Part shown: positions 754-19,287 of the stretch, one piece after another
Layout of the letters: each line of letters begins with the position of its first letter
How positions within the stretch are numbered: position 1 is the stretch's first letter
Assembly (NCBI GenBank): GCA_041497675.1
Contig: JBGQGY010000068.1
Location: 1 to 19,583 of the forward strand
DNA from: a bacterium
GTDB taxonomy: Bacteria; Sysuimicrobiota; Sysuimicrobiia; Sysuimicrobiales; Humicultoraceae
Reading direction: 5' to 3'
Length of the DNA stretch: 19,583 nt
Notes under the pieces: generated by a model
The model's database searches: none
Told to the model about the DNA's origin: nothing
What the model saw: the letters and a program-made list of their open reading frames with translations, nothing else
Made by a program: the position numbers and the translations under genes

Positions 754-846
754 GACCGATACCACCTGAACCCATCGTGCGACGGCCCCGACGGTTTGCC
801 CATCGGGCCCAGGTGGTAACTATGGAAGGCAGTCTCCCGACAGGGC

Positions 847-864
847 ATCGGGTGGACGCCCTAT
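847..864. promoter_or_regulatory. Palindromic operator box upstream of psrA
   Basis: ATCGGG-TGGACG-CCCTAT; minus-strand -10-like CATAGT (824-819) lies 22 nt away. Confidence 0.72.
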
Positions 865-898
865 GTGGGAAACGGTGTCGTGCGCAGGTACCCACCGT

Positions 899-1401
899 CT
901 AGCGGCTTCTTACGGGCTTTGCGCGCGCGAGTTTTCGTCGGACGGCGTCACCGGTCAATTCGCGCACTGCATCCGCGGCAATCCAGCGGGCGGCCCTCGA
1001 CGACATCTGTTGAATCGCTTTGGCTTGCGCGATGGCCTTGCGGTCCAGCCGCCGGTTCCGCTTGCCGATTTGTCGCAGCGCCCAGTTGATACCTGATCAC
1101 AAACATCCCACGAGTCGAAGGTCGCCGCCCAGCGGTTCATTTGCGCTCGGGTCACGCGCCCCGGATCGTCGATGAATCCGGCCAAGATGCGCGCCTCGTG
1201 CACGCCCGACGCCCATAACGCCTGCGCGAGGGGGTGATCAGTGCCGATCTCACCGGCGATCCGGCGAAGGACCGGGATCGAGATACCCAGGGTGCGTGTC
1301 GGGTTGATGCCAAACCGCGCCATCCCCGCCGCGTTGGTTGGGTTGGCCATCCGGCGCAGTCGACGGAGAATGGCCGCGGCCTTGAGGCCGCCGGTCACCA
1401 C
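899..1401 (-). pseudogene. AlkD-like DNA alkylation repair protein with an internal deletion and frameshift
   Basis: First frame from GTG 1401 gives ...GMARFGI...LGISIPVLRRIA...LAQALWASGVHEARILA...FDSWDVCDQV. A different frame from 1090 gives the family C-terminus INWALRQIGKRN...AARWIAADAVREL...* (stop 901-899). The middle region of the family is absent. Confidence 0.8.
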
Positions 1402-2712
1402 CTACGCCACCGCCGGCACGGTCCCCCTGACGTCATCGCCGGTGTGCGCCAGGCGTCTGACCAGTTCACCGTGGTAGACGCTCAGGTCGATCATCTTGCG
1501 GGCCACGCCGGCAGCCATGGCCGCCTGCGCCACCGCCGGCGCCACGCGCATCAGCAGCCGTGGGTCCAATGGCTTGGGGATCAGATAGTCGGGTCCAAAG
1601 CGCAGCGCGCGCAACCCGTAGGCGCGCAGCACGGCGTCCGGCACGTCCTCCTTGGCCAATGCCGCTAGGGCCTTCGTGGCGGCGATCTTCATGTCGTCGG
1701 TGATGGCCCGAGCCCGGACGTCCAATGCGCCGCGGAAGATGAACGGAAACCCGAGCACGTTGTTGACTTGGTTTGGATAGTCCGATCGGCCGGTGGCGAC
1801 GATGACGTCTGGCCGCGCCGCCCGGGCGTCGTCGAAGCCGATTTCCGGGTCGGGGTTGGCGAGGGCGAAGACGATCGGCACCGGGGCCATCGAGCGGACC
1901 ATGGCCGGGCTGACGATCCCTCCAACCGAAAGACCGATGAACACGTCGGCGCCGGAGAGGGCGTCGGCCAGCGTGCGCGCCGGAGTATCCGCCGCAAACC
2001 GTTCCTTGTACGGGTTCATCCCCGCGGCGCGGCCCTTGTGGACGACACCCCGTGTGTCCACGAGCATGATGCGGGTCCTGGGCATCCCGAGCCTGACGAA
2101 GAACTCGCCGCACGCGATGGCCGCCGCGCCGGCGCCGCTGATGACCACCGTCACCTCGTCGATGCGTTTGCCGGCCACTTCGAGGGCGTTGAGCAGCGCC
2201 GCACCGGTGATGATCGCCGTGCCGTGCTGATCGTCATGGAAGACCGGAATGTCCAACAGGGTCTTCAAGCGCTCCTCGATCACGAAGCATTCGGGCGCCT
2301 TGATATCTTCCAAGTTGATCCCGCCGAACGTCGGCTCGAGGGCCTTGACGATGCGCACGATGTCGTCAGGGTCCGTCGCGTTGATCTCGATGTCGAAGAC
2401 GTCGACATCGGCGAAGCGCTTGAAGAGGAGCGCTTTTCCTTCCATGACCGGCTTGGCGGCCAGGGCACCAACGTTGCCCAGACCGAGAACGGCCGTGCCG
2501 TTGGTGACGACCGCCACGAGGTTCTCCCGCGCGGTATAGGCGTACGCAGCAGCAGGGTCGGCGTAGATTGCCCGGACGGGTTCGGCCACGCCGGGCGTGT
2601 ACGCCAGGGATAGGTCGTGTTGTGTCGCGCATGGTTTGGTGATCTGGATGGCGATCTTTCCAGGCCGGCCGGTCGCATGGTATCGTAGTGTCTCTTCCCG
2701 CAGGCTGCTCAC
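1402..2712 (-). CDS. NAD(P)-dependent malic enzyme (MaeB-type catalytic domains, no PTA domain)
   Basis: 436 aa; [73 protein letters not shown] upstream of GTG. Confidence 0.95.
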
Positions 2713-2776
2713 GGGTAAGCCCTCCTTTGGAGCCGTCGATTCAGTTCCACTGTGGACCCGCGGACCGACCCCCTCT

Positions 2777-2794
2777 ATCGGGCACCCGCCCGAT
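2777..2794. promoter_or_regulatory. Palindromic operator box for the malic enzyme promoter
   Basis: ATCGGG-CACCCG-CCCGAT (perfect arms); minus-strand CACAGT (2754-2749) 22 nt away. Confidence 0.8.
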
Positions 2795-2812
2795 TTTCAG
2801 GCTCGAGCGCGG

Positions 2813-2830
2813 ATCGGCTGCCCGCCCGAT
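2813..2830. promoter_or_regulatory. Palindromic operator box for the USP promoter
   Basis: ATCGGC-TGCCCG-CCCGAT; plus-strand TATCGT (2854-2859) 23 nt downstream. Confidence 0.78.
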
Positions 2831-2898
2831 AGCCGCCCGGCTGGCGCGCGGTCTATCGTGATGTTGGAACCGCCGATCTGTAGGGGGAGGGTTGGATC

Positions 2899-3390
2899 AT
2901 GGATGCCATACAGCGGATGCTCGTCGCGACGGATCTCTCGGACATTTCGACCAGCATCTACAAAACCGCGGCAGATCTTGCCGGGCGGACGAAAGCTGAG
3001 ATGATCGTCGCACACATCGCGAGTCCTGAGGAATACGCGGAGACGCTGCGCGAAGTACATCTGAGCGTCGATGAGTACCTTGAGCGATTTCGGTCCACGA
3101 TCCGCTTCGCCGTCCGCAAGGCGATCGGTGAGACTGTGCCCGTGCAGGCCGAGGTCGTCATGCGCGCGCGAAGCGTGGCCGCCGACCTGCTGGACTTGGC
3201 CACCCGCCTGCACGTAGATCTGATCGTGATGGGCACTCACGGTCGCACCGGTGTGCCCAGAGCCCTCCTGGGCAGCGTCGCCGAAGAAGTTATCCGCCAC
3301 GCCGGGCTCCCGGTCCTTGTCGTGCCGATGTTCCGTCGCCCAGCGAAAGCGGCGGAGGTCGTGGCTGCTCGTAGCGGGGGAGGGATCTAG
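2899..3390 (+). CDS. Universal stress protein (single USP domain)
   Basis: 163 aa; [10 protein letters not shown]-terminus and [27 protein letters not shown] (G-2X-G-9X-GS ATP-binding type); SD GGGGAGG. Confidence 0.93.
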
Positions 3391-3392
3391 CG

Positions 3393-3584
3393 ATGCATGA
3401 GGATCTGCTTGCCCATGCGCTGATGCAGGAGCGTCTCGCTGAGCTCGAGCGGCGGCGCCTGATCCGGGAGGCGGAACGAGCACTGTTTGGGAAAGCCACC
3501 CGGCGGCCGCTGGCCCGGAGAATATTTCCCCGGCGGACAACGGCGCCACGCGGCGCCCGTCCGCCCGAGAAGCGCGCGGCCTGA
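3393..3584 (+). CDS. Small hypothetical protein (63 aa; helical N-half, Arg-rich C-half)
   Basis: ATG 2 nt after the USP stop, preceded by GGGGAGGG; exactly fills the gap to the convergent fhs stop. Confidence 0.6.
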   Translation: MHEDLLAHALMQERLAELERRRLIREAERALFGKATRRPLARRIFPRRTTAPRGARPPEKRAA

Positions 3585-3585
3585 T

Positions 3586-5232
3586 CTACGAGATACCGTT
3601 GATGGTCCCGTCAGGGGCCAGGTCAATGGCCCACACCCGCGGCCGCGGCGGCAGGGCCGGCATCGTCATCATGTCGCCTGCCAGGGCGAGGACGAAGCCC
3701 GCGCCGGCCCGCACCTCGACGTCGCGGATGTGAATCGCAAACCCCTGCGGGACCCCGCCGACATGCGGGTCATCCGTTAGCGAGTATTGCGTCTTCGCGA
3801 TACACACGGGGAATCGGCCGAACCCGCGCGCTTCAAATTCCTTTAGGTGCTGGAGGGCCGCGTCCGCGAAGGTGACGCCTGAGGCGTTGTACACCTCGCG
3901 GGCGACCACATCCAGCTTCTCCGCCAGACCGGCCTCCGGGCCATAGAGCCTGCCCCCGGAGTCCGGCGGCCCGGCCGCGCACTCGTCCAGCACGATGCGG
4001 GCCAGATCGCGTGCACCCGCGCTGCCGGCGGTGAATGCGGTCGAGACCGCGGCGGGTATGCCCCACTCGTGAGCCGCCCGCTCGATCACGTCCAGTTCGT
4101 CGGGGCGGTCGGTGTCGAAGGCGTTGATGCAGATCACGGGACGCATGCCCAGCCGGCGCACGATCTGCACGTGATGGCGCAACTGCGCCAGTCCTGTCGT
4201 CACGGCCGCGGGCGCCGGTTCTCCCAGCCGCGTCAGCGGGACGCCGCCGTGATACTTGAACGCGCGGACGGTGACGACGATTACGGCGACGCGCGGATGC
4301 GGCCCGCCGTGCGCTTCGACGAGGTTCACAAACTTTTCCGCGCCGAGGTCCGCACCGAATCCGGCTTCGACCACCACGTAGTGGGCTAGTTTCCTCGCCA
4401 GCAGCAGTGAAACGAGCGAGCTCGTGCCGTGCGCGATGTTGGCGAACGGGCCCGCGTGGATGAGCGCGGGCCCACCGTCCTGTGTTTGCGCCAGGTTGGG
4501 TTGCAGAGCGTCTCGGAGCAATGCCGCCATGGCGCCCGCCGCGTGCAGGTCTTCCGCGGTCACCGGCGTGCCATCACGCGTCTGGCCCACGACAATGCGG
4601 CCCAGCCGGGCCCGGAGGTCCGCGTAGTCGCACGCCAGGCCCAGGACCGCCATCACTTCCGAAGCGGCCGTGATGTCGAACTGATCCTCGCGCGGGGCGC
4701 TCCCCAACCCCACGATCACGTGCCGTAGGGCTCGGTCGTTTGTGTCGAGCACACGGTGAAACGTCGGGCGCCGGATGTCCGGCTGGGGTTCGCGTCCTCG
4801 GAAGATGTGGTCGTCGAGTACTGCGGCCAACAGGTTGTTGGCGGCGGTGACGGCGTGGAAGTCGCCGGTGAAATGGAGGTTGATCTCCGCGGCGGGTTCA
4901 ACGGTGCAGCGCCCGCCGCCCGTCGCGCCGCCCTTCAGGCCGAACACGGGCCCCATTGACGGCTCGCGTAGGCACACGACAGTCGGGGCGCTGCTCGCCC
5001 GCAGTGCCTGGGCGAGCGCGATGGCCGTCACCGTCTTGCCTTCGCCTGCCGGCGTGGGGGTGATGGCGGTGACCAGGACGACGTGGCCGTCGGGCCTGCT
5101 GCGCCGCAGCGCCAGCGCGTCCAGCCTCACCTTGGCTTTGAAATGACCGAACAATTCGAGCTCAGACGGATCGAGTCCGACCTCCGCTGCCACCGCGGTG
5201 ATCGGGCGCAATCCCGTCGCAATCGCGGCCAT
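3586..5232 (-). CDS. fhs: Formate--tetrahydrofolate ligase
   Basis: 548 aa; TPAGEGKT, GPVFGLKGGATGGG, NLHFTGDFHA, GPFANIAHG, EAGFGADLGAEKF, CIAKTQYS; SD GGGGAGG. Confidence 0.97.
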   Translation of the reverse strand: MAAIATGLRPITAVAAEVGLDPSELELFGHFKAKVRLDALALRRSRPDGHVVLVTAITPTPAGEGKTVTAIALAQALRASSAPTVVCLREPSMGPVFGLKGGATGGGRCTVEPAAEINLHFTGDFHAVTAANNLLAAVLDDHIFRGREPQPDIRRPTFHRVLDTNDRALRHVIVGLGSAPREDQFDITAASEVMAVLGLACDYADLRARLGRIVVGQTRDGTPVTAEDLHAAGAMAALLRDALQPNLAQTQDGGPALIHAGPFANIAHGTSSLVSLLLARKLAHYVVVEAGFGADLGAEKFVNLVEAHGGPHPRVAVIVVTVRAFKYHGGVPLTRLGEPAPAAVTTGLAQLRHHVQIVRRLGMRPVICINAFDTDRPDELDVIERAAHEWGIPAAVSTAFTAGSAGARDLARIVLDECAAGPPDSGGRLYGPEAGLAEKLDVVAREVYNASGVTFADAALQHLKEFEARGFGRFPVCIAKTQYSLTDDPHVGGVPQGFAIHIRDVEVRAGAGFVLALAGDMMTMPALPPRPRVWAIDLAPDGTINGIS

Positions 5233-5289
5233 CGATGCCTCCCCAAACCAGACCTGCTTTCAGGCTACGGACCGGCCCCACGCCGGGCC

Positions 5290-5307
5290 ATCCGTCGAAG
5301 GCCCGAT
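5290..5307. promoter_or_regulatory. Operator box for the fhs promoter
   Basis: ATCCGT-CGAAGG-CCCGAT; minus-strand TAGCCT (5267-5262) 22 nt away. Confidence 0.68.
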
Positions 5308-5339
5308 TCTCGCCCGCGGCGCGCGGCCAGCCGCGCAGG

Positions 5340-5357
5340 ATCAGATATTCGCCCGAT
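5340..5357. promoter_or_regulatory. Operator box for the ybaK-PRODH-capA promoter
   Basis: ATCAGA-TATTCG-CCCGAT; extended -10 TG-T-GATGCT (hexamer 5380-5385) 22 nt downstream. Confidence 0.7.
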
Positions 5358-5422
5358 AGTGGCGGCCCCCGACCCGTGTGATGCTAACAATGGAGCAATG
5401 TAACAGGGAGGAGGGAGATGCC

Positions 5423-5929
5423 ATGACATGCCGGGAGCGCCTCGAGCGAGTCTTTCACGAACTGGGGGTGCCGTACCGCGTCACCCCGCATCATCTCGCG
5501 TATACGGCGCAGGAAGTCGCCACGACCGAGCACATCAGCGGCTACGCTGTCGCCAAGGTGGTGATCGTCATGACTGACGATGCGCCGGTTATGGTCGTCC
5601 TGCCGGCGCCGCTTCGCGTCCACCTAGAGAAAGTGAAGGGCGCGTTCGAGGCCAAGACGGCCCGCCTGGCCAGCGAGAAAGAGTTTGTGGAATTCTTCCC
5701 CGACTGCGACGTCGGCGCGATGCCGCCGTTTGGCAACCTCTATGGCGTTCCGGTCTGCGTCGACCGTCGCCTGACGGTTGATCCGGAGATCACCTTCAAC
5801 GCCGGCTCGCATCGCGAGACGATGACCATCGCGTACGGTGACTTCGAGCGCTTGGTCCGTCCGAAGATTGCCGAAGTCTCCATGCCACCGGCGGAGCAGC
5901 CGGTCTCAGAGTACGAGATGAGGCGATGA
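5423..5929 (+). CDS. YbaK/EbsC/ProX-family aminoacyl-tRNA deacylase-like protein
   Basis: AYTAQEVA, VAKVVIV, RLASEKE..FPDCDVGAMPPFGNLYG, FNAGSH; start moved to ATG 5423, which follows GGAGGAGGGAG (168 aa). Confidence 0.9.
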   Translation: MTCRERLERVFHELGVPYRVTPHHLAYTAQEVATTEHISGYAVAKVVIVMTDDAPVMVVLPAPLRVHLEKVKGAFEAKTARLASEKEFVEFFPDCDVGAMPPFGNLYGVPVCVDRRLTVDPEITFNAGSHRETMTIAYGDFERLVRPKIAEVSMPPAEQPVSEYEMRR

Positions 5930-6903
5930 GCACGAGGGCGGGCGCGGCACCGCTTCCGGGTCAGAGCCAGCCGCGGCAGCGCCCGCCCTTCGTCCGCACG
6001 TTCGTTCTGGGATTGTCCCGGACGCGGCCTGTGCGTCATCTCGTCACGCGTACGGGTCTGTTCCGGCCGGTCGTGAACCGGTTCATCGCGGGTGAGACCC
6101 CCGCCGCCGCCCTCACCGCCGTGGCCGACCTCAACGCCCGCGGCCTGCTTGTCACCGTCGATCTGCTTGGCGAGGCGACCGTCAGCGACGCCCTCGCCCG
6201 GCAGGCCGCGCTGGGCTACGTCAGGATATTGGACGCTTTGAGCCGGCGCGGGTTGCGCAGTCACGTTTCGGTCAAGCTCTCGCAACTGGGGCTCGACCTC
6301 TCGCTTGACACGGCCGAGGCGTGGCTGCGTGACATCGTGGCGCATGCGCAGACCAGCCGGACGTTTGTGCGGGTGGACATGGAGGATAGCGGGCGCCTGG
6401 CTGCGACCCAGCGGGTGTTTGACCGCGTATGGCATGCGGGGGCGCGCAACGTTGGAATCGCCCTGCAGGCCTATCTGTATCGCACCCCAGACGACGCCAG
6501 ACGCTACGCGGCCCGCGGTGTGAGCATCAGGTTGTGCAAGGGCGCGTACGCCGAACCCCCGGACCTCGCATATGCGCGCAAGGCCGACGTCGATGCGGCG
6601 TTTGTCCGCCTGATGCACCAGGTGCTTGGCAGCGAGAGCTATCTCGCCATCGCCACCCACGACGAGCGTCTGATCGAACAGGCGAAGACGCTCGCGGCGG
6701 CGAGGAACATCGCGTCGGAACGGTTCGAGTTTCAGATGTTGTACGGTATCCGCCGGGACCTGCAGGAGTTGCTGGTGCGGCAGGGTTACCGCGTGCGCGT
6801 CTACGTGCCGTTCGGCACCCATTGGTATCCGTACTTCATGCGGCGGCTTGCCGAGCGTCCCGCCAACGTGCTCTTCCTGGCCCGACACCTGATCCGGCGC
6901 TAG
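5926..6903 (+). CDS. Monofunctional proline dehydrogenase
   Basis: RFIAGET, DLLGE, SVKLSQLGL, VDMED, LQAYLYRT, RLCKGAY, IATHD, EFQMLYG, YVPFG..WYPYFMRRLAERP; ATGA overlap with the upstream gene. Confidence 0.95.
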   Translation: MSTRAGAAPLPGQSQPRQRPPFVRTFVLGLSRTRPVRHLVTRTGLFRPVVNRFIAGETPAAALTAVADLNARGLLVTVDLLGEATVSDALARQAALGYVRILDALSRRGLRSHVSVKLSQLGLDLSLDTAEAWLRDIVAHAQTSRTFVRVDMEDSGRLAATQRVFDRVWHAGARNVGIALQAYLYRTPDDARRYAARGVSIRLCKGAYAEPPDLAYARKADVDAAFVRLMHQVLGSESYLAIATHDERLIEQAKTLAAARNIASERFEFQMLYGIRRDLQELLVRQGYRVRVYVPFGTHWYPYFMRRLAERPANVLFLARHLIRR

Positions 6904-6906
6904 CTT

Positions 6907-7953
6907 ATGCGCCTCGCGTTGCTCGGCGATGTCATGTTGGGCCGGCTGGTGAACGAGGCGCTTCGTGCCCTCCCGCCCGCATACCCGTGGGGCGACACCC
7001 TGCCGATCTTGCGCGCGGCGGACGTGGTGATCGCCAACCTGGAATGCGTTCTCGCGGACCACGGCGTGCCGCAGCCCGAGAAGGTATTCACCTTTCGTTC
7101 CGATACGAAGAACGTCGCTGTCCTGAATGCGGCGCGGGTCGCAGCGGTCTCGCTCGCCAACAACCACTCGCTGGACTACGGATGCGAGGCGCTGGTCGAG
7201 TGTCTTTCAGTGCTTCACGGGTGCGGGATCGCCGTAGCTGGGGCCGGTCGATCACTGGACGAGGCCGCCGCGCCCGTGCTGGTGTCTCTCCGCGGTCGCG
7301 CCTCACCGGTGGCTGATGTCCCAGCGCTCGCCCTGGTGGGCTGGACCGACAATGAGCCCGCGTGGGAAGCCGGTCCGCACACGCCCGGCGTATTCTACGT
7401 GTCGCTGACGCCGGACGGTGATGACCCGAGGGAGGAGGCCCTGCTCTCGGTCGTCGCGGCCGCCGCGAATGCGGGGCAGTGTGTCATTGTGTCCGCGCAC
7501 TGGGGGCCGAACTGGGGCGTCGAGCCGCTGGCCGACCATGTCCGGGTTGCGCGTCGGCTGATCGACGCGGGCGCCGACGTGATCTTCGGCCACAGCCCCC
7601 ACGTCTTTCGGGGGGTGGAACTGTATCGCGGAAAACCCATCTTCTATGGCTGCGGGGACTTCATCGACGACTACTACGTCGATGCTGTGGAGCGCAATGA
7701 TCTGTCGTGCGTGTCCGTCCTGGACTATGAAGAGGGGCGCCTGCGGCGGCTCTTGCTGTATCCTACGGTCATTCGGCGGTTCCAGGCTCGCCTGGCCCGT
7801 GGTGCCGATCGTGAGATGTTCCTGGAGCGCGCGGCCCGAGTCTGCCGGGCGTGCGGTACCCGGACCCACCTCGTTCCCGAGGGTCTTGAGATCCCCCCGG
7901 ATATACAGCGTTCGCCCGATGGCGCGGGGACGCGCGGTGCTCTAGCATACTAA
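6907..7953 (+). CDS. CapA/PGA_cap family metallophosphatase-fold protein
   Basis: LGDVMLGR, ANLEC, SLANNHSLDYG, SAHWG, GADVIFGHSPH, YGCGDFIDDY. Confidence 0.92.
   Translation: MRLALLGDVMLGRLVNEALRALPPAYPWGDTLPILRAADVVIANLECVLADHGVPQPEKVFTFRSDTKNVAVLNAARVAAVSLANNHSLDYGCEALVECLSVLHGCGIAVAGAGRSLDEAAAPVLVSLRGRASPVADVPALALVGWTDNEPAWEAGPHTPGVFYVSLTPDGDDPREEALLSVVAAAANAGQCVIVSAHWGPNWGVEPLADHVRVARRLIDAGADVIFGHSPHVFRGVELYRGKPIFYGCGDFIDDYYVDAVERNDLSCVSVLDYEEGRLRRLLLYPTVIRRFQARLARGADREMFLERAARVCRACGTRTHLVPEGLEIPPDIQRSPDGAGTRGALAY
7903..7948 (+). promoter_or_regulatory. Operator box plus -10 inside the 3' end of capA, pointing at the candidate ncRNA
   Basis: ATACAG-CGTTCG-CCCGAT (7903-7920; one perfect arm) and TAGCAT (7943-7948) 22 nt downstream; implied start near 7955-7956. 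Confidence 0.6.
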
Positions 7954-7955
7954 TC

Positions 7956-8127: not shown

Positions 8128-8139
8128 TTAATATTTCCT

Positions 8140-8805
8140 ATGACAACGGCCCCCACCGCCGAGTTCTTCGTCACCATCCCCGTTGGGGAGGCGGGTCTTG
8201 AGGGCCACCTCAGCGTGCCATCCGCGGCCGCCGGCATTGTCTTGTTCGCTCATGGCAGCGGCAGCAGCCGGTGGAGCCCGCGCAACCGATTCGTGGCCGG
8301 CGTATTGCAAGGCGCCGGCCTGGCGACGTTGTTAGTTGATTTGCTGACCCCCGCCGAAGAGACCGTCGATGAGCGAACGCGCCGCCTGCGGTTTGACATT
8401 GGGCTGCTCGCGGGCCGTCTCGGCGCCGCCACCGAGTGGGTGACGGCATCGCCGTCCACACGCCATCTCGCCGTGGGGTACTTTGGGGCCAGCACCGGAT
8501 CTGCGGCGGCGCTGGTGGCGTCGGCGGAACGCCCCGAGGTGGTCCTCGCCATTGTCTCGCGCGGGGGTCGTCCGGACCTGGCCGGCGACGCACTGGAGCG
8601 CGTGCGCGCGCCCACGCTGCTCATCGTTGGGGGGAACGATACCCCGGTCATCGGCCTGAACCAGGACGCCCTTCGGCGCATGACGGTCGAAAAGGAACTG
8701 GCCATCGTGCCGGGCGCGACGCACCTGTTCGAGGAACCCGGGGCGCTGGAAGAGGTGAGCCGTCTGGCCGCCGGCTGGTTCTCGCGATACCTTCCGCAGC
8801 GTTAG
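8140..8805 (+). CDS. Dienelactone hydrolase-like alpha/beta hydrolase
   Basis: 221 aa; LFAHGSGSSRWSPRN, GYFGASTG nucleophile elbow, SRGGRPDLA, PTLLIVGGND, GATHLFEEPG. Confidence 0.9.
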   Translation: MTTAPTAEFFVTIPVGEAGLEGHLSVPSAAAGIVLFAHGSGSSRWSPRNRFVAGVLQGAGLATLLVDLLTPAEETVDERTRRLRFDIGLLAGRLGAATEWVTASPSTRHLAVGYFGASTGSAAALVASAERPEVVLAIVSRGGRPDLAGDALERVRAPTLLIVGGNDTPVIGLNQDALRRMTVEKELAIVPGATHLFEEPGALEEVSRLAAGWFSRYLPQR

Positions 8806-8806
8806 A

Positions 8807-9694: not shown

Positions 9695-9722
9695 GGCCCG
9701 GTGCGCGAGGGCGCGCCCCGGG

Positions 9723-10640
9723 TCAGTCGAATCGGATACGGGGATCGATGAAGCCATAGGCCACATCCACGACCAGGTTCATCGCGACCAGAAAGACGCT
9801 GTAGAAGACCGTCGTGCCCATGATCACCGTGTAGTCGCGATTGTAGATCGACGTCACGAAGTAACGCCCCAGACCCGGGATGGCAAAGATGCGCTCGATG
9901 ACGAACGACCCCGTCAGCACCGCTGCGGTGATCGGACCCAGGTACGTGACCACCGGGATGACAGCGTTCTTCAGCGCGTGACGGTATGTCACCGTGATCT
10001 CGGCCAGGCCCTTGGCCCGCGCCGTGCGCACATAGTCCTGCCGGATGACCTCGAGCATGCTCGATCGGGTGAGGCGCGCGATGAAGCCGGTGGGGTACAT
10101 CCCCAACGCCACGGCGGGCAGTAGCAGATGCGCCGGCGTCCCCCAACCGCCGGCCGGCAGCACGTGCAGGCGAAGACCAAAAAAATAGATAAAGAGCGTC
10201 GCCAGCAAGAACGATGGGATCGAGACGCCCAGCAGCGCCCAAAGCATCGAGAAGTAGTCCGAGAACGAATACTGCCGGAGCGCAGAGATCAGCCCGGTCG
10301 GGACACCGACCGCCAGGGCAAACAGCAACGCCAGCACGCCCAACTCGGCAGAGACCGGAAACCCCTGCCGGATGATGTCATTGACGGTCAGGTCTTCATA
10401 TTTGAACGATGGCCCGAGATCGAAGCGCAGCAGGTTGTGCAGATAGTCGACGTACTGCTTCCAGAGCGGGTCGTTCAGCCGGTAGCGGACCTCCAGGTTG
10501 CGCAAGATCTCGGGTGGGAGCTGTTTTTCCGCCGTAAACGGCCCGCCCGGGATAGTTTTCATCAGGAAGAACGTCATCGTGCTGACCACCCAGATGACCA
10601 CCAGCATGGAAAGCACGCGTCTGAAGATGAACCCGCCCAT
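9723..10640 (-). CDS. oppB: Oligopeptide ABC transporter permease OppB
   Basis: PGGPF, DLGPSFKY, DYVRTARAKG, HALKNA, GSFVIERIFAIPGLG, DPRIR; ATG 10640 follows GAGGG. Confidence 0.94.
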   Translation of the reverse strand: MGGFIFRRVLSMLVVIWVVSTMTFFLMKTIPGGPFTAEKQLPPEILRNLEVRYRLNDPLWKQYVDYLHNLLRFDLGPSFKYEDLTVNDIIRQGFPVSAELGVLALLFALAVGVPTGLISALRQYSFSDYFSMLWALLGVSIPSFLLATLFIYFFGLRLHVLPAGGWGTPAHLLLPAVALGMYPTGFIARLTRSSMLEVIRQDYVRTARAKGLAEITVTYRHALKNAVIPVVTYLGPITAAVLTGSFVIERIFAIPGLGRYFVTSIYNRDYTVIMGTTVFYSVFLVAMNLVVDVAYGFIDPRIRFD

Positions 10641-10650
10641 AGATGCCCTC

Positions 10651-10683
10651 ACGCGGGGGAGGAAGGACCAACCTCCCCCGCGT
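10651..10683 (-). other. Intercistronic stem-loop between oppA and oppB
   Basis: Perfect 12-bp inverted repeat ACGCGGGGGAGG / CCTCCCCCGCGT with a 9-nt loop and no U-tract; typical position for an mRNA-stabilising hairpin after a binding-protein gene. Confidence 0.8.
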
Positions 10684-10691
10684 CGACTCGG

Positions 10692-12278: not shown

Positions 12279-12356
12279 AGGTACACCCTCCTTATGGACA
12301 CCACTGACTCTTGCTGCGTCCGATTTTATGGTATGGCTCGCGCGTGGAAGGGCGTA

Positions 12357-12374
12357 ATCGGGCGCCCGCCCGAT
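12357..12374. promoter_or_regulatory. Operator box for the oppABC promoter
   Basis: A-ATCGGG-CGCCCG-CCCGAT-T (perfect, extended arms); minus-strand TACCAT (12333-12328) 23 nt away. Confidence 0.82.
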
Positions 12375-12402
12375 TCGGAGACGCGGGGGCTGGCGGGCCC
12401 GG

Positions 12403-12768
12403 TTAGTGCGGCAGGCGCTGCAGCGTGGTCACCAGCATATCCGCCAGTTCGGTTTTTTCTACCCACCCATCCGCGGCGAGGCGCTCGACGGCATCCTCGT
12501 ACTCGGTCCCGTGGTTCGCGGTGGTGACCACCAGGCGCAGACCCGGGTATTGACCGCGCAGCTGCGCCAGGGCCAGCGGCTGGGCCACGCAGGCCCGCAG
12601 ATCGGCCACCACAACGTCGATGGCGTCGGGTTTGGCCGACCAGAGTTCCGGCAGCGACCGGACGTGTTCCACGATGCGCAGGTCTGCGGTGCCTCCAAGC
12701 ACCGACGCGATCGCCAGGTGCATCTCGGGAGAAGGCTCGACGATGGCCACGAGCAACGGTTCAGGCAT
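12403..12768 (-). CDS. Stand-alone receiver (REC) domain protein, atypical
   Basis: VAIVEP (beta1), DVVVADL (phosphoacceptor Asp), LVVTT, ADGWVEK (conserved Lys); no output domain. ATG 12768 preferred because ATG 12807 overlaps the operator box. Confidence 0.78.
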   Translation of the reverse strand: MPEPLLVAIVEPSPEMHLAIASVLGGTADLRIVEHVRSLPELWSAKPDAIDVVVADLRACVAQPLALAQLRGQYPGLRLVVTTANHGTEYEDAVERLAADGWVEKTELADMLVTTLQRLPH

Positions 12769-12805
12769 CTCGTCCTTCTTATACAGAGACGAGCCCCGGG
12801 TGCCC

Positions 12806-12823
12806 ATCAGGCCGCCGCCTGAT
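12806..12823. promoter_or_regulatory. Operator box for the receiver-domain gene
   Basis: ATCAGG-CCGCCG-CCTGAT (perfect palindromic arms); minus-strand TATAAG (12783-12778) 22 nt away. Confidence 0.75.
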
Positions 12824-12825
12824 TA

Positions 12826-13851
12826 TCACTTGACGATGAGCGCCGTTACCATGCCGTGCATGCCGTGATCGCTTTCGGCGTGGTTGAGGAGATGGCAGTG
12901 AAACGCCCACACGCCTGCCTCGGTCGCGTGGATCAGCACGTCGAACCGCTGACCCGGCGAGATGTTCAAGGTGTCGACCTGATACGGCTGCGGAACCGGG
13001 TAACCGTCCTCGGTGATGACCCGCATCGGCATGCCGTGGAGGTGCATCGGGTGGATCATCAATCCTTCGTTCATAAAGCGCACGCGGATCCACTCACCGT
13101 TCTTGGCTACAATCGGTGCCGTAGCCGGAAAGCCTTTGCCGTTAATCGTGTACCCAAAGAAACCATCATTGAGAATCAGGATCTGGTCTTGACTGACCTT
13201 TGGCTCTGCCGACCTGTTCTTCGGCTCGATGATGAACGCGCCCAGCAGGCCGAGTGGCACCTGGCGGTCTGCGGCGTGGTGCGAATGGTACATGTGCGAA
13301 CCGGGATTGCGTGCGGTGAACTCGTAGGTGAACGACTCTCCCGGCTTCACGGGCGGCTGCGTGATGAACGGCACACCGTCCATGTTGTTGGGGATGAGCA
13401 GACCGTGGAAGTGGATGGACGTGCTTTCCTTCAGGTTGTTCCTGAGGATGAGCCGCACGCGGTCGCCCTCGGTCACCCGGATCGTCGGGCCTGGGACCGC
13501 GCCGTTGTACGCAAAGGCGGTCTTTTTCACCCCGGGTGTGATCTCCCAGTCGATCTCAGACGCCGTGATCTTGAAGACCTTGACGCCGGCTGCGATCTCG
13601 GGCGCAAGGGGTTGCGCCCCCTTGCCGGCCGTCGGCGCGGGGAAGGCCTTGACCCCGGCCTCGTGACCGGCGTCCATTTCCCGAACGCGGTCCTGAATGG
13701 TCTGAGGCAGCGTGGACGCCGCCTGGGCCACGCGGGGAGCCAGGGGGCTATGGATCTGAGGCAGAAGTGGCGTCCTCCGCCCCGTGTAGGTTCCCGCCAC
13801 AAAGGCCAGGGCCACCAAGAGAGCGATGAGGCCGATCTTTGGGAATCGCAT
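12826..13851 (-). CDS. Two-domain multicopper oxidase (type B, small-laccase-like), exported or membrane-anchored
   Basis: SIHFHG, MYHSH, HPMHLHG, FHCHLLNH...HGM; T1 ligands only in domain 2. Start ATG 13851 follows AGGAGG, then a hydrophobic N-terminal segment (341 aa). Confidence 0.9.
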   Translation of the reverse strand: MRFPKIGLIALLVALAFVAGTYTGRRTPLLPQIHSPLAPRVAQAASTLPQTIQDRVREMDAGHEAGVKAFPAPTAGKGAQPLAPEIAAGVKVFKITASEIDWEITPGVKKTAFAYNGAVPGPTIRVTEGDRVRLILRNNLKESTSIHFHGLLIPNNMDGVPFITQPPVKPGESFTYEFTARNPGSHMYHSHHAADRQVPLGLLGAFIIEPKNRSAEPKVSQDQILILNDGFFGYTINGKGFPATAPIVAKNGEWIRVRFMNEGLMIHPMHLHGMPMRVITEDGYPVPQPYQVDTLNISPGQRFDVLIHATEAGVWAFHCHLLNHAESDHGMHGMVTALIVK

Positions 13852-13918
13852 TGCTGGGGGTTCCTCCTGGAGACACGATCTTGCTGGTGATCGTACCGGA
13901 ATGCGCCGGACGGCAACC

Positions 13919-13983
13919 ATCCGGTCTGCTGCTGATTTCCGCATCGGGTCCACGCCTGACGCCGGTTCAGCGGGCGGACCGAT
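13919..13983. promoter_or_regulatory. Three tandem operator boxes between the divergent MCO and CBS genes
   Basis: 13919 ATCCGG-TCTGCT-GCTGAT; 13943 ATCGGG-TCCACG-CCTGAC; 13966 TTCAGC-GGGCGG-ACCGAT. Minus TACGAT (13895-13890) is 23 nt from the first; plus TAAGCT (14006-14011) is 22 nt from the third. Confidence 0.68.
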
Positions 13984-14041
13984 GGCGGGTTGGGGGCGTG
14001 GGGACTAAGCTGGTCCCAACGATGCTGCGGAGAGGGCTGCC

Positions 14042-14713
14042 ATGTTTGTCCGGGACTGCATGACCCCCGATCCGAGGACGATCGAGCCGGACGCGACACT
14101 CGACGAGGCCCTGAGCCTGATGGGCGCTCTCAAGATACGGCACCTGCCAGTCGTCGATGGGAGCCAGCTGGTCGGGATCGTCACGTGGACCGACCTGATG
14201 GGCGTGGTGCCCATGCCCGGAAGGCGGCGCCGCACCGCCAACGGCGCGGGGCTCCTGGCTAACGCGCAGGTCAAGGACGTGATGACCAAAGACCCGCTGA
14301 CCGTCTCACCCGATGCGCCGGTCGAGATCGCGGCGCGGATGCTGCGGGAGCGAAAGATTGGCTCGCTCCCCGTGATGGAGCGTCACATGCTGGTAGGCAT
14401 CGTGACCGAGAGCGATCTGTTCGACGCGCTGGTGTATCTGTTGGGTGGAGACATCCGGGGTGTGCGAATGTCCCTGGAGCTGCCAAACGGTCTCGCCGAC
14501 GTGACACGGTTTACTGCCGCGCTGGCCGGTCTTACCATCGAGAAGAACGCGGTCGTCGTGACTGTTCGCGTCGACGAAGTATCCCACCGTGGGTACGTGC
14601 GCGTGGCGACCCCATCCCCGCTCGCTCTCACCGAACACCTGGCCACCGCGGGTTTTGAAATCTCCAATTTGCGATTTGACGGCGTCCCGAAGAACGCCCG
14701 GCACACGTCCTGA
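14042..14713 (+). CDS. CBS-pair protein with C-terminal ACT-like domain (AcuB-like)
   Basis: MFVRDCMT, IRHLPVVD..LVGIVT, VKDVMTKDP, KIGSLPV..LVGIVTESDLF, then a ~85-aa alpha/beta tail. Confidence 0.88.
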   Translation: MFVRDCMTPDPRTIEPDATLDEALSLMGALKIRHLPVVDGSQLVGIVTWTDLMGVVPMPGRRRRTANGAGLLANAQVKDVMTKDPLTVSPDAPVEIAARMLRERKIGSLPVMERHMLVGIVTESDLFDALVYLLGGDIRGVRMSLELPNGLADVTRFTAALAGLTIEKNAVVVTVRVDEVSHRGYVRVATPSPLALTEHLATAGFEISNLRFDGVPKNARHTS

Positions 14714-14732
14714 TAGCAGGTGAGGGAAACTT

Positions 14733-16652
14733 TCAGGCCCGGGTCGGCCTGAAACGGAGGAGCCGGAGCCCGTTGAATACCACAAGGACCGTGCTGCCCT
14801 CGTGCCCGACCACGCCCAGCGCCAGGCGCAGACCTACGGCAAAAGTCAGCATGATGAGCACGGCGATGACGCAGGCTGCAAACGCGAGGTTTTGCCTGAT
14901 CACCCGCCTGGCCTGACGGCTCAGCTGGATCGCCTCCGGCAGCCGGTACAGGTCGTCCCCCATCAGCACCAGGTCGGCGGTTTCCATCGCGGCGTCGGTA
15001 CCGGCGGCCCCCATCGCGACGCCGATGTCGGCGGTGGCCAGAGCCGGCGCGTCGTTGACCCCGTCGCCCACCATGGCGACGACGCCCTCCCGGGCCAACC
15101 CCTTGACGACTTCGGCCTTCTGCTCGGGGAGGAGGTCCGCACGGGTCTCGTCCAGTTCGAGTTGTCTCGCCACGGCCTCGGCGACTTGATGGTGGTCGCC
15201 CGTGAGCATCACGATCCGCCGAATGCCCAGCGCCCGCAGCGCACGAATGGCCGGGTACGCCTGCGGCCGAAGCGTGTCCGCCACGGCGAGAATGCCGAGC
15301 AAGGTCTGGTTGGCCACCAAAATGGGGACCCTGCCTCGCTCGCGCAGCAGGCTGAGGTGGATGGCCACGTGCTCGGAGATTGTGACGCCCTCGTCGCGCA
15401 TGAACTGTTCGCTGCCCACCCGCACCGTCTGGGTCCCGACGATGCCTTTGACCCCGCGGCCCGTGACCGACTCAAACGACTGCGGATCTACCAGGGCCAC
15501 GCCGCGTTGCCGGCAGGCCGTCACCACCGCCTCGGCCAGCGCGTGTTCTGACCGCTGTTCGATGCTGCCGGCCACTTCCAGCAGCGTCTCCTCGGTGACG
15601 GCCAGCGGGACGACGTCGGTCAACTCCGGTCGGCCCATGGTCAGCGTTCCCGTCTTGTCAAAGACGACGGTCCCGACGTCGGCAAGCCGCTCGACGTGCA
15701 CGCCGCCCTTGAACAAGATGCCGCGGCGCGCGGCGTTCGCGATCGCCGACAGCACGGTGGCAGGCGTGGCGATGACCAGCGCGCAGGGGGAGGCCACCAC
15801 GAGCAACGTGATGGCGCGATAGAAGGCCGCGTCTCCCGCAAATCCCAGCGCGATGAACACGGCGTACGCGGCGATCGCGCCCAGGATCACGACGATCGCG
15901 TAGACTTGACCGAAGCGGTCGATCAACCGCTGGCTCGGCGCCTGCGCCGACTGCGCTTCTTCGACGAGCGCGATGATCCGTGCGAGCGTCGCGTCTTCCG
16001 CTTCCTTCGTCACCTGGATTTCCAGGCTGCCGCGCTGATTGATCGTGCCGGCGAAGACCGGCGTCCCGGGGCCGACGTCGACCGGGATCGACTCCCCGGT
16101 AATGGGGGATTGATCGATGCTAGAGGCGCCGTGCGCGACGACGCCGTCGGCGGGCAGCCGTTCGGCCGGCCGGACAATGATGACGTCACCGACGCGAAGG
16201 TGTTCGACGGCGATGACGATTTCTTTGCCATCGCGCCGCGCATGCGCCTCGCGGGGGCGCAGGTCCATCAGCGCCCGGATGGCGCGGCGTGTGCGGCCTA
16301 CTGCGTAGAATTCCATGGCATTGCTGAGGGAGAAGAGGAAGAGGAGGATGCCGCCCTCGTCCCACTGGCCGATCGATGCGGCGCCGAGCGCCGCGATGAG
16401 CATGAGCAGGTTGACGTCGACGCGGCGACGCCGCAGCGCGCCCCATGCGGTGATCGCGCTGCCCGTACCGCCGGCCAGATATGCGAGGACGTGCAGGGGG
16501 AGCGACGCCGGGTCACCGGCGAAGTGCTCGACCAGTCTCGCGCCGATCAGGAAGAATGCACAAAACGCCGGCTGTGCGCCGGGGAGGATGTGATGGAGCC
16601 AGGACCCCGATCTGACGCTCCGGTCGGGGCCTGCCGGCCGCGTGTGGAGCAC
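14733..16652 (-). CDS. Heavy-metal P-type ATPase, P1B-4 subclass (PfeT/CoaT/CtpD type)
   Basis: TGES, SPC in the metal-binding helix, DKTGT, SEH, GDGVNDAP, HEGST in the last helix; no N-terminal HMA domain; 639 aa. Confidence 0.94.
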   Translation of the reverse strand: MLHTRPAGPDRSVRSGSWLHHILPGAQPAFCAFFLIGARLVEHFAGDPASLPLHVLAYLAGGTGSAITAWGALRRRRVDVNLLMLIAALGAASIGQWDEGGILLFLFSLSNAMEFYAVGRTRRAIRALMDLRPREAHARRDGKEIVIAVEHLRVGDVIIVRPAERLPADGVVAHGASSIDQSPITGESIPVDVGPGTPVFAGTINQRGSLEIQVTKEAEDATLARIIALVEEAQSAQAPSQRLIDRFGQVYAIVVILGAIAAYAVFIALGFAGDAAFYRAITLLVVASPCALVIATPATVLSAIANAARRGILFKGGVHVERLADVGTVVFDKTGTLTMGRPELTDVVPLAVTEETLLEVAGSIEQRSEHALAEAVVTACRQRGVALVDPQSFESVTGRGVKGIVGTQTVRVGSEQFMRDEGVTISEHVAIHLSLLRERGRVPILVANQTLLGILAVADTLRPQAYPAIRALRALGIRRIVMLTGDHHQVAEAVARQLELDETRADLLPEQKAEVVKGLAREGVVAMVGDGVNDAPALATADIGVAMGAAGTDAAMETADLVLMGDDLYRLPEAIQLSRQARRVIRQNLAFAACVIAVLIMLTFAVGLRLALGVVGHEGSTVLVVFNGLRLLRFRPTRA

Positions 16653-16657
16653 CGGCT

Positions 16658-17122
16658 CTAGCGGCGGGCTCCCTTCCGAGGGCGCCGGACCGGTACCCTT
16701 CGACGGCCGGCGGCGCGCTTGGGCGGCGCCGTCTCGCGCGGCCCTTCGCGCTCGCCACCCGTGTCGTGGAGGTTGAGGAATACACGGATGATGTCGCTGG
16801 CGCTGACAATGCCGATCACCCGGCCACCCTCGACGATAGGCAGGCGCCGGACCATCTGGTCGAGCATCATGCCCGCGACCTCTTCCACCGACGCGTCCTG
16901 CGCGGCGCTGACCGGATCCGAGGTCATGATGTCGGTCACCCTCTCGCCGACCCGGCCTACCAGGTCAACCAGGCTGACCATTCCCACCAGCTGGCCGGCG
17001 GCGTCCACGACCGGCGCGCCGTGGATCCGGTACCGTGTCAGGAGCTCGCTCGTCTCAGCCACCGTCATGTCCGGTACCACTGAGATGACGTCCCGTGTCA
17101 TGATGTCTGCGGCCGTCAACAT
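16658..17122 (-). CDS. CBS-pair protein with Arg-rich tail
   Basis: Real start ATG 17122 (MLTAADIMTRDV); IHGAPVVD..LVGMVS, VRRLPIV..VIGIVSASD; 154 aa. The longer ORF call overlaps the USP gene. Confidence 0.88.
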   Translation of the reverse strand: MLTAADIMTRDVISVVPDMTVAETSELLTRYRIHGAPVVDAAGQLVGMVSLVDLVGRVGERVTDIMTSDPVSAAQDASVEEVAGMMLDQMVRRLPIVEGGRVIGIVSASDIIRVFLNLHDTGGEREGPRETAPPKRAAGRRRVPVRRPRKGARR

Positions 17123-17196
17123 CGGCGTCGCCCCCGGTGCGTCGTTTTGTAGATCCGAAACCCTACTCAGCGTAGCCCCGCGACGTGGACCGGGCC

Positions 17197-17214
17197 ATCG
17201 GTCGAGTGCCTGAT
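17197..17214. promoter_or_regulatory. Single operator box centred between divergent CBS/ATPase and USP/DASS promoters
   Basis: ATCGGT-CGAGTG-CCTGAT; minus TACGCT (17174-17169) and plus TG-G-CATCAT (17237-17242) each 22 nt from the box. Confidence 0.78.
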
Positions 17215-17272
17215 TCCAGCGTCTGGGCGTTGGTGGCATCATAGCATTGGAGATCACAGGGGGTGAGTATGG

Positions 17273-19248: not shown

Positions 19249-19281
19249 GCGTGCTAGCCTGTGAAATGGTTGGGTGGGCGG

Positions 19282-19287
19282 TAAAAT
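19282..19287 (+). promoter_or_regulatory. Putative -10 element for the last gene
   Basis: TAAAAT in an AT-richer intergenic stretch, 39 nt before the ATG; no operator box at the 22-23 nt position. Confidence 0.45.

Follow-up and report, generated by a model that had tools for sequence, protein, structure and literature searches.

We analysed a 19,583-nt contig of a Sysuimicrobiota genome (assembly GCA_041497675.1; contig JBGQGY010000068.1, here C68 or the window) in which an 18-bp palindromic box, ATCGGGY-N4-RCCCGAT, stands at a fixed distance from predicted -10 elements. The box marks a conserved regulon, new in its operator and its regulator clade, from a phylum that has no cultured members. 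The palindrome is probably the operator of one dimeric factor, most likely a response regulator encoded on another contig (response regulator C, RR C), which would switch on a low-oxygen, anaerobic and stress regulon in a class II-like manner. The window is probably part of the main genomic island of the regulon. The box-headed genes share a theme, combining low-oxygen and anaerobic energy metabolism with proteins of the stress and dormancy type.

An enriched palindrome upstream of genes

The first-pass annotation of the window had listed 12 boxes of the form ATC(G/A)GG-N6-CC(C/T)GAT, and all 12 coordinates hold the sequences it gave. The pattern is matched exactly at 2777, 12357 and 12806 and with one mismatch at 847, 2813, 5340, 13943 and 17197. 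The remaining boxes have two mismatches (5290 and 13919) or three (7903 and 13966, with position weight matrix (PWM) scores of 11.1 and 4.3, respectively). The annotation had cautioned that its weaker boxes were accepted partly for their spacing. This caution was justified, as 7903 and 13966 are acceptable only through their promoter-proximal half-site and the distance to the hexamer.

Exact matches to the pattern number three in the window, whereas 200 dinucleotide-preserving shuffles gave 0.01 on average and never three or more. With up to two mismatches allowed, the window has 15 matches (shuffle mean 3.88, largest 11; 0 of 200 shuffles reached 15). Thus, the motif is commoner in the window than in shuffled sequence, a comparison that the annotation had proposed as a check on its reading. 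Ten of the 15 matches are the sites it had listed, and the five others (5201, 10977, 17121, 19131 and 19351) are about as many as chance would give. The last of these, ATCGGGCAGGTACACGAT at 19351-19368 (1 mismatch, PWM 15.5), lies within the coding region of ytfJ, 56 nt from its start.

The genome to which the window belongs (3.97 Mb, 272 contigs, about 66% G+C) contains 13 exact sites at the N6 spacing and 1-7 at each of the 12 other spacings from N0 to N12. Sites with one mismatch number 74 at N6 versus 41-121 at the other spacings, and this class as a whole is not enriched. A reversed-pattern control, run in the searches of related genomes described below, gave 0 sites everywhere but is unmatched in composition (TAG is rare and CG common), and for this reason we preferred the spacing control. 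Ten of the 13 exact sites are intergenic, each upstream of a gene, as are 19 of the 74 one-mismatch sites, in a genome whose non-coding fraction is 7.7% according to a crude gene caller. Of the resulting 29 intergenic sites, 28 are located upstream of a gene. The intergenic sites yielded the refined consensus ATCGGGY-N4-RCCCGAT and also trained the PWM, which makes PWM-based intergenic counts partly circular but leaves exact-pattern counts unaffected. The window represents 0.5% of the genome length, yet it holds 11 of the 57 sites with a PWM score of at least 15.

We also noted two pairs of near-identical 26-mers that include a degenerate box. One pair, CAAGATCGGTCGGTG(G/A)ACTGATGACA, is on contig C90 (8202 and 8634, 432 bp apart) upstream of an arsR-type gene. 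The other, AAATCAACTC(C/T)(T/C)CGCCCGAT(G/A)GAC, is at C59:14157 and C103:6591. Both pairs have the appearance of a short repeat that was copied, not of ordinary operators.

Rigid spacing between the box and the -10 hexamer

The annotation had paired the boxes with 12 -10-like hexamers on the strand of the downstream gene, all of which we confirmed. The gap to the box edge is 22 nt in nine cases and 23 nt in three, and 11 of the 12 hexamers have A at position 2 and T at position 6 (the exception is TATAAG, at box 12806). The enrichment of this gap, another check proposed at that stage, extends to the whole genome. Among 44 box-to-gene orientations with a PWM score of at least 16, TANNNT occurs 11 times at a gap of 22 and five times at 23 but only 0-2 times at any other gap from 8 to 39. 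Similarly, 24 of the 33 intergenic boxes have NANNNT at a gap of 22 or 23 on at least one side (1-10 for 13 control gap pairs), and 19 have TANNNT (0-3 for control gap pairs). The spacing recurs in a related genome assembled in four contigs (G009), where TANNNT is found at gap 22 in nine of 27 orientations and at gap 23 in two.

Alignment of 37 gap-22 promoters on the hexamer gave the order box, (G/T)G, TAsssT, a G in 70% of the promoters and then a purine-rich stretch, and it revealed no conserved -35 element between box and hexamer. The sequences after the hexamer (TGGAA, TGAAA or TGGAG; e.g., window 2749-2740 and 5262-5253) resemble a GGGA-type discriminator, an element known from the Thermus RNA polymerase. 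If transcription starts about 7 nt past the hexamer, the box centre would fall at about -43.5 (gap 22) or -44.5 (gap 23). The class II geometry put forward in the annotation is supported by the rigid 22/23-nt gap, a predicted centre close to -43.5, which is also the position reported for the DosR box at hspX, and the lack of a conserved -35. This fixed position beside the -35 region recurs at many promoters, including those on both sides of the single box 17197.

The same protein and operator could in principle act in repression, with the bound protein covering the -35 region until anoxia lifts the block. From a site next to the -35 position, a protein can block sigma region 4. However, we find repression improbable given the one-position spacing across dozens of promoters and on both sides of box 17197, the lack of a -35 consensus, and the solved example of an activator, DosR, that occupies the same position. 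Repressor operators usually tolerate variable placement. We infer activation rather than repression.

A structural role for the palindrome, as a REP-like (repetitive extragenic palindrome) repeat or as an RNA or DNA hairpin for termination or processing, is almost certainly wrong. Perfect boxes do fold into 7-bp hairpins (-11.8 to -14.6 kcal/mol), and several boxes are just past a stop codon (12806, 12357 and C69:7956). Yet degenerate boxes with the correct -10 gap (17197 and 5340) form no hairpin, and on this folding result we rejected the hairpin. Also against it are the position of all but one of the intergenic sites upstream of a gene, the fixed spacing to the -10, the conservation between genomes of the half-sites only and the absence of a T-run after the boxes in the stretches inspected.

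Seven RNA-library runs (sediment metatranscriptomes) contained 7-14% of the sampled words, and the contigs of four runs were compared with the window. The RNA contigs cover parts of several box-headed genes, many of the pieces being only 92-95% alike, and stretches that they leave uncovered carry no information. Among 32 of the 393 pieces, contig ends at 2883/2884, 5407, 12308 and 17152 lie 10-18 nt inside the predicted starts, a weak hint in favour of these start sites from contigs that cannot show starts as such.

Gene content and conservation of the regulon

The annotation had read the boxes as the signature of a hidden regulon. Consistent with this, the genes they precede are functionally coherent in the window and elsewhere in the genome, and the box is conserved in the phylum sample and at orthologous promoters. 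The top-scoring box of the genome (C23:29725, PWM 28.2) heads an Rrf2-nosZ-nosL-nosD-nosF-nosY operon divergent from IMP dehydrogenase. Strong boxes also precede pyruvate:ferredoxin oxidoreductase at two loci (contig C20 and, as a second, multi-subunit copy, contig C113). Other box-headed genes outside the window encode HypC, cupredoxins, HSP20 (C42), FeoB (C1), MoeA/MobB, OsmC and peptide-binding proteins, and on contig C93 an ADP-forming acyl-CoA synthetase with a P-type ATPase. Universal stress protein, CBS, alpha-crystallin (HSP20) and anaerobic respiration genes are all present among the box-headed genes. Two NarL-type two-component operons carry boxes as well. The first, on contig C26, encodes a Cache-HAMP-GAF kinase and a regulator (RR A); the second, on contig C69, comprises ytfJ, a PAS-GAF kinase and a regulator (RR B). 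We read both systems as regulon members that serve as second-tier regulators.

We followed the box in 41 relatives and in a phylum sample of 73 genomes, each at least 85% complete and all from one order in this collection. These genome counts, and the profiles of RR B, RR C and the CRP family below, include two unpublished genomes (G010 and G019) with 0 boxes and no RR C-like gene. The exact refined pattern is present in 36 of the 41 relatives and 62 of the 73 phylum genomes, in up to 40 copies per genome. In G009, a 135-kb stretch contains 26 sites with a PWM score of at least 13 (22 of them intergenic). They head pairs of universal stress protein and CBS genes, Rrf2-nosZ (two boxes, PWM 22.7 and 27.4), a multicopper oxidase, molybdoenzymes, a NarG-like enzyme and a radical-SAM gene, as well as hypA-NiFe hydrogenase, hypB, a V-ATPase-like operon, aconitase and a sigma-70-family gene. 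A divergent pair of universal stress protein and malic enzyme genes with two boxes is arranged in G009 as in the window.

The malic enzyme promoter allowed us to follow individual boxes across genomes. In other genomes, 14 of 22 loci have a box (PWM of at least 12) upstream of the malic enzyme ortholog, and in 12 of the 14 the distance to the start codon is 69-86 nt. Conservation at orthologous promoters, on which the annotation had staked its reading, is therefore present at this gene. Between genomes, the boxes retain their half-sites and vary in the four to six bases at the centre. Eight of the 22 loci have no box, including all three from genus g4 (in one of these, L131, only 115 nt of upstream sequence is available).

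The sigma-70-family gene of G009 (L101:7394-8332 = G009:C1:707394-708332) has full-length regions 1.2, 2, 3 and 4. It is 286 nt downstream of the box at 707099, which has a NANNNT hexamer at gap 22. This gene could provide a feed-forward step; we saw no box-headed counterpart of it in the genome of the window.

The C69 PAS-GAF kinase was not useful as a tracer of the regulon because, among public relatives, only L022 (74% identity) has boxes upstream (331 and 2812). For L021 (91% identity), the upstream stretch is too short to judge. The distant Chloroflexota-labelled loci of C69-type kinases have no box upstream of the kinase, and their only match, in L025 (PWM 17.0), is within the matched gene range.

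RR C is the best candidate for the regulator

GerE matches number 16 in this genome, which also contains three clear CRP-family genes. The annotation had guessed at a dimeric NarL/LuxR-type response regulator encoded outside the window. No such gene is in the window, and the best candidate binder is RR C (C72:13477-14130), a response regulator of this type. By its domain content (Pfam Response_reg, 3.5e-31; GerE, 6.2e-24), the predicted protein is a member of the NarL/FixJ family, and it aligns over its full length to VraR, NarL and DevR in a PDB search. It reaches no equivalog cut-off in NCBIfam (best MctR, 193.6 versus 300 bits; NarL, 157.9 versus 250). Directly upstream and on the same strand is the gene for its partner kinase (C72:12298-13476), with GAF, HisKA_3 and HATPase_c domains and no Pfam match to a membrane sensor domain. 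In a PDB sequence search, the core of this kinase matches DevS/DosT and its GAF domain does not, a result that is uninformative about haem binding. On the other side of RR C are a tandem-domain universal stress protein gene (L108:5141-6052 = C72:14141-15052, - strand) and an Nramp transporter, followed by aconitase. The aconitase gene next to the orthologous regulator has three tandem boxes in G009 and none here.

Phyletic distribution supports, indirectly, a NarL/LuxR-type dimer, since genomes with the box tend to encode one regulator clade, whose recognition helix is invariant and whose genes often stand behind a box, and regulators of the CRP/FNR and Rrf2 families fail the same co-occurrence comparison. 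RR C is 87-88% identical to a G009 protein encoded about 4 kb beyond the last boxes of the 135-kb stretch, and relatives with at least 64% identity are found across all the families sampled. The RR C clade (36 rows) is tight in a maximum-likelihood tree. Its recognition helix, S[IV]KT[VI]QTHR[AT]H, is invariant and absent from the other NarL-type regulators of this genome. A box is located within 300 nt upstream of the regulator's own operon for 11 of the 36 clade genes (30 relatives). Nine of these 11 genes come from a subclade of ten regulators that have no kinase match next to them. At least four exact boxes are present in 38 of the 56 genomes with an RR C-like gene versus two of the 17 without one, at a threshold that we chose ourselves and among related genomes that are not independent. 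In genera g9, g15, g24, g27 and g28, boxes are fewer in members that lack an RR C-like gene than in the other members of the genus.

Several observations weigh against RR C, or against activation by it, in addition to the dependence just mentioned. The co-occurrence of gene and box could reflect the joint gain or loss of an island that holds the regulator gene. No box with a PWM score of at least 8 is upstream of the RR C operon in this genome, unlike dosR. In G009, the stretch beyond 122 kb likewise has no box of this score at the RR C operon and only the three upstream of aconitase. We rejected autoregulation of RR C on the basis of these boxless operons here and in G009. The seven genomes of genus g4 have RR C-like genes yet only 0-2 exact boxes, and the g4 malic enzymes have no upstream box in the three loci examined. 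Conversely, G012 (5 boxes, 93% complete) and G068 (11 boxes, 86% complete) have no RR C-like match at E<=1e-75. A box upstream does not single out RR C because RR A, RR B and the G009 regulator RR1 are also behind boxes. Finally, promoters without a -35 are common in some phyla, and the missing -35 is for this reason weak evidence of dependence on an activator.

The box could instead be bound by another, autoregulated NarL/LuxR-type regulator, in this genus RR B or RR A, with RR C being unrelated or a co-regulator. RR B (C69:16264-16938) is behind a perfect box (C69:18996, PWM 26.9) and RR A (C26:15196-15840) behind a strong one (C26:18092, PWM 22.6), an arrangement comparable to that of dosR. 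Furthermore, the 3' end of the window has a 95%-identical copy that adjoins the RR B locus, and a paralog in G009, RR1, is within the box-headed malic enzyme operon. We nevertheless consider these regulators unlikely. Relatives of RR B with at least 68% identity are found in only three of 40 relatives (G001, G002 and G027; the rest reach 50% at most), yet the box spans the phylum sample, and on this phyletic pattern we rejected RR B as the universal regulator. RR A (NTVKFHMKN) and RR B (STVRFHVSS) each have their own recognition helix, and neither helix is that of the RR C clade. An ortholog of RR1 is missing from this genome, where its best match is 51%.

A regulator of the CRP/FNR family is very unlikely. 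CRP sites have a 5-N6-5 geometry, and FNR-type factors typically control anaerobic genes from about -41.5. The 5-N6-5 core of the box (TCGGG-N6-CCCGA) and the anaerobic gene content fit this family, and one of its members is encoded in the G009 island at about 725.97-726.82 kb. However, none of the three CRP-family genes of this genome has a box nearby. Orthologs of the CRP-family gene on contig C18 are present in G010, G011, G019 and G037, which have no exact box, and were not found in the box-rich G004, G023 and G028. In the latter, nearly complete genomes, the HTH_Crp_2 domain reaches best E values of only 8e-9, 6e-8 and 1e-5, respectively, and the matches in G004 and G023 are partial. We rejected a CRP/FNR binder on this co-occurrence test.

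The NsrR-like, Rrf2-family protein encoded by the first gene of the nosZ operon is a highly unlikely binder, even though the Rrf2-nosZ box is the best of this genome and among the best in G009. A match to this protein at E<=1e-20 is found in only 15 of 41 genomes and in none of the box-rich G018, G027, G028, G032, G036 and G038, a pattern on which we rejected it. Known Rrf2 sites are also longer, being 11-1-11-type repeats.

Comparison with DosR and other NarL-family systems

The closest parallel to the architecture that we propose is DosR/DevR-DosS/DosT of Mycobacterium tuberculosis. At hspX, the DosR box has its centre at about -43.5, next to a suboptimal -35, and the dimer contacts region 4 of sigma-A and the alpha subunit (PMC13486717). 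DosR reads GGGACT through K179, K182 and N183 in a 20-bp site with G4G5G6A7C8T9 in each half (PMC13486717). Dev boxes are reported to work in tandem at -42.5 and -63.5, DevR needing at least two of them (PMC3177182). Targets of DosR include universal stress proteins, the small heat-shock protein HspX and the P-type ATPase CtpF (PMC13486717, PMC3177182, PMC5069765). The system described here shares with DosR a NarL-family dimer (in our case, a candidate), a GGG...CCC palindrome and a box centre, here a predicted one, near -43.5 beside a poor or absent -35. It also shares extra boxes about two helical turns away, targets that encode stress proteins, heat-shock proteins and P-type ATPases, and kinases with GAF domains.

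The two systems differ in other respects. The operator is 18 bp long with GGG-N6-CCC versus 20 bp with GGG-N8-CCC for DosR, and the same half-sites at N8 give seven exact sites in this genome versus 13 at N6. RR C has K, Q and T (K-T-V-Q-T) where DosR reads bases through K179, K182 and N183, sharing only the first of these residues. In the PDB search, VraR/LiaR (E 1.6e-50) are closer to RR C than is DevR (3c3w, 2.1e-33), which comes fifth among the matches and is behind NarL too. Furthermore, no DosR-type model is among the best 25 of 37 NCBIfam matches. Most promoters here have a single box, and the RR C operon has none. The regulon also spans N-oxide and sulfur respiration, hydrogenase and one-carbon enzymes. 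By comparison with these systems, the one described here is not orthologous to DosR and appears to be wired like the DosR/OsdR class with its own operator and regulator clade.

The related OsdR/OsdK system of Streptomyces coelicolor controls a DosR-like regulon that was predicted by comparative logic and then confirmed by electrophoretic mobility shift assay (PMC5069765). The OsdR consensus, AGGGCCGATCGGCCCT, is a 16-bp GGG-N8-CCC site interchangeable with DevR sites (PMC5069765). As in our genome, the OsdR regulon clusters in a single region with many universal stress protein genes. Our box differs from the OsdR site in its ATC/GAT flanks and in the distance between the G-tracts, which is 2 bp shorter.

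Other members of the family compare less closely. NarL/NarP and NreC have the REC and GerE/LuxR helix-turn-helix architecture of RR C and regulate anaerobic respiration genes via inverted repeats. The NreC site is TAGGG-N4-CCCTA and NarL binds 7-2-7 heptamers, half-sites and spacings unlike those of the box. VraR/LiaR are the best PDB sequence matches of RR C (E 1.6e-50 to 2.9e-49, full length) but differ in the recognition helix (KTVKTHVSN in VraR, KTVQTHRAH in RR C), the GAF-sensor partner kinase and the regulon, which is unrelated.

Proposed mechanism and significance

In the mechanism that we propose, a phosphorylated NarL-type dimer would bind ATCGGGY-N4-RCCCGAT centred about 43.5 bp upstream of the transcription start and sit directly upstream of the would-be -35 element. 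From there, it may recruit RNA polymerase as a class II activator to sigma-70-type promoters that have only the TAnnnT -10. The contacts with RNA polymerase (sigma region 4 or alpha) are predicted by analogy with the DosR activation complex. RR C is probably cotranscribed with the gene for its GAF-HisKA_3 kinase, which is predicted to be cytoplasmic. Divergent genes would be served by one box each (2777/2813 and 5290/5340) or by one box for both sides (17197). Box arrays with spacings of 22-25 bp (13919/13943/13966) suggest cooperative binding on one face of the helix; a further close pair is found on contig C115 (23 bp apart), and the boxes upstream of aconitase in G009 are 25 and 23 bp apart. 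The signal may be low oxygen, redox state or nitrogen oxides, as judged from the gene content and the GAF sensor.

A bolder reading, which seems to us somewhat more doubtful than probable, is that the system is an independent invention of DosR logic, shared by most of the phylum genomes sampled. A response regulator clade with a frozen recognition helix would read the shorter GGG-N6-CCC operator at a rigid -43.5 on promoters without a -35, atop a regulatory cascade. The cascade would comprise the PAS-GAF and Cache-GAF two-component systems, kinase-less copies of RR C and, in some genomes, the sigma-70-family gene. If so, one input would be enough to switch tens of operons from aerobic heterotrophy to a survival mode that is anaerobic or chemolithotrophic, and back. 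This mode would draw on hydrogenase, N-oxide and sulfur respiration, ferredoxin-linked pyruvate metabolism and one-carbon enzymes.

The phylum is reported to have no cultured member (PMC11604079). The words 'regulator' and 'promoter' occur 0 times in that genome survey, and our searches found no literature on gene regulation in the phylum. The operator provides a testable map of genes predicted to be switched together (stress proteins, N2O reductase, molybdoenzymes, hydrogenase, and ferredoxin-linked and one-carbon enzymes). The map therefore predicts how these proposed facultative anaerobes respond to the loss of oxygen. The predicted promoters and start sites can be checked in existing metatranscriptomes, and a specific regulator-kinase pair is named for binding assays. 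More generally, DosR-like regulons of dormancy or hypoxia gain a second operator geometry with this box, and not a new mechanism.

Box-headed genes of the window

Genes in the window were assigned from Pfam and NCBIfam profile matches. At its left end is a molybdopterin oxidoreductase gene (1-765, - strand; PhsA-like, with a twin-arginine translocation (TAT) signal) that reads on into contig C113. It is preceded by box ATCGGGTGGACGCCCTAT (847..864, PWM 21.0) and the hexamer CATAGT (819-824, -, gap 22). Positions 1-136 of the window match the end of C113 (C113:11675-11810) with 100% identity; therefore, the contigs abut and the island extends into C113. The C113 side has boxes at 490 and 6264 and contains the rest of the PhsA-like operon, MoeA/MobB, the second pyruvate:ferredoxin oxidoreductase, one more universal stress protein and citrate synthase.

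The malic enzyme gene (1402-2712, -) and a universal stress protein gene (2899-3390, +) diverge from a pair of boxes. The former has ATCGGGCACCCGCCCGAT (2777..2794, PWM 24.7) and the hexamer CACAGT (2749-2754, -, gap 22); the latter has ATCGGCTGCCCGCCCGAT (2813..2830, PWM 18.1) and TATCGT (2854-2859, +, gap 23). Downstream of the malic enzyme gene is a truncated open reading frame (ORF) that resembles DNA alkylation repair proteins (955-1401, -). It matches only positions 2-107 of the 213 of the profile and is rejected by a codon-bias gene caller, and it is probably a gene remnant. G009 has a kinase-regulator pair in its place.

The next divergent pair of boxes separates the formate-tetrahydrofolate ligase gene (3586-5232, -) from an operon for a YbaK-like editing-domain protein, proline dehydrogenase and a PGA_cap protein (about 5400-7953, +). 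The ligase gene has box ATCCGTCGAAGGCCCGAT (5290..5307, PWM 17.6) and the hexamer TAGCCT (5262-5267, -, gap 22), and the operon has ATCAGATATTCGCCCGAT (5340..5357, PWM 21.1) and GATGCT (5380-5385, +, gap 22). The annotated GTG start of the editing-domain gene (5378) overlaps this -10 and would precede the predicted transcription start. The true start codon is for this reason probably downstream, where a more plausible GGAGG-ATG is found. The weak box ATACAGCGTTCGCCCGAT (7903..7920), with a perfect promoter-proximal half and the hexamer TAGCAT (7943-7948, +, gap 22), sits within the 3' end of the PGA_cap gene. It is possibly part of an internal promoter for the dienelactone-hydrolase-like gene that follows (8140-8805, +).

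An OppA/B/C-type transporter (an OppA-like binding protein and two permeases, 12278 down to 8807, -) is headed by box ATCGGGCGCCCGCCCGAT (12357..12374, PWM 23.2) with the hexamer TACCAT (12328-12333, -, gap 23). Between the Opp genes and a multicopper oxidase gene is a small ORF (12403-12807, -, up to 134 aa; to about 12770 as the gene behind its box) with its own box-type promoter. It has good codon bias and no match in Pfam or NCBIfam. Its box, ATCAGGCCGCCGCCTGAT (12806..12823, PWM 20.5), is 3 nt past the stop codon of the multicopper oxidase gene and is paired with TATAAG (12778-12783, -, gap 22), the -10-like hexamer that lacks the final T.

The two-domain multicopper oxidase (12826-13953, -; to about 13851 as the gene behind its box) is not called a nitrite reductase because it falls short of the NirK model (71.8 versus 296.3 bits). 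The gene diverges from a CBS-pair gene (14042-14713, +) across the three-box array. Box ATCCGGTCTGCTGCTGAT (13919..13936, PWM 15.0) serves the oxidase gene with the hexamer TACGAT (13890-13895, -, gap 23), and the weak box TTCAGCGGGCGGACCGAT (13966..13983) serves the CBS-pair gene with TAAGCT (14006-14011, +, gap 22). The middle box, ATCGGGTCCACGCCTGAC (13943..13960, PWM 16.2), is 24 and 23 bp from 13919 and 13966, respectively. It has no -10-like hexamer at gap 22 or 23 on either side and is probably an auxiliary, cooperative site.

Box ATCGGTCGAGTGCCTGAT (17197..17214, PWM 17.3) serves two divergent promoters at a gap of 22 nt on both sides. On the - side, TACGCT (17169-17174) precedes a second CBS-pair gene and then a P1B-type heavy-metal ATPase gene (about 17140 down to 14733). 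On the + side, CATCAT (17237-17242) precedes a second universal stress protein gene (17273-17728). The window continues with a DASS symporter gene (17905-19248, +) and ends within a YtfJ-family gene, of which only the start is included.

The last ~780 nt of the window (18800-19583; end of the DASS symporter gene and ytfJ) are 94-97% identical to the end of contig C69 (C69:18500-19516). This resemblance reflects either a duplicated locus or two strains collapsed in one assembly. In the C69 copy, the spacer is about 90 bp longer and contains a perfect box, and ytfJ is followed by the PAS-GAF kinase and NarL-type regulator genes.

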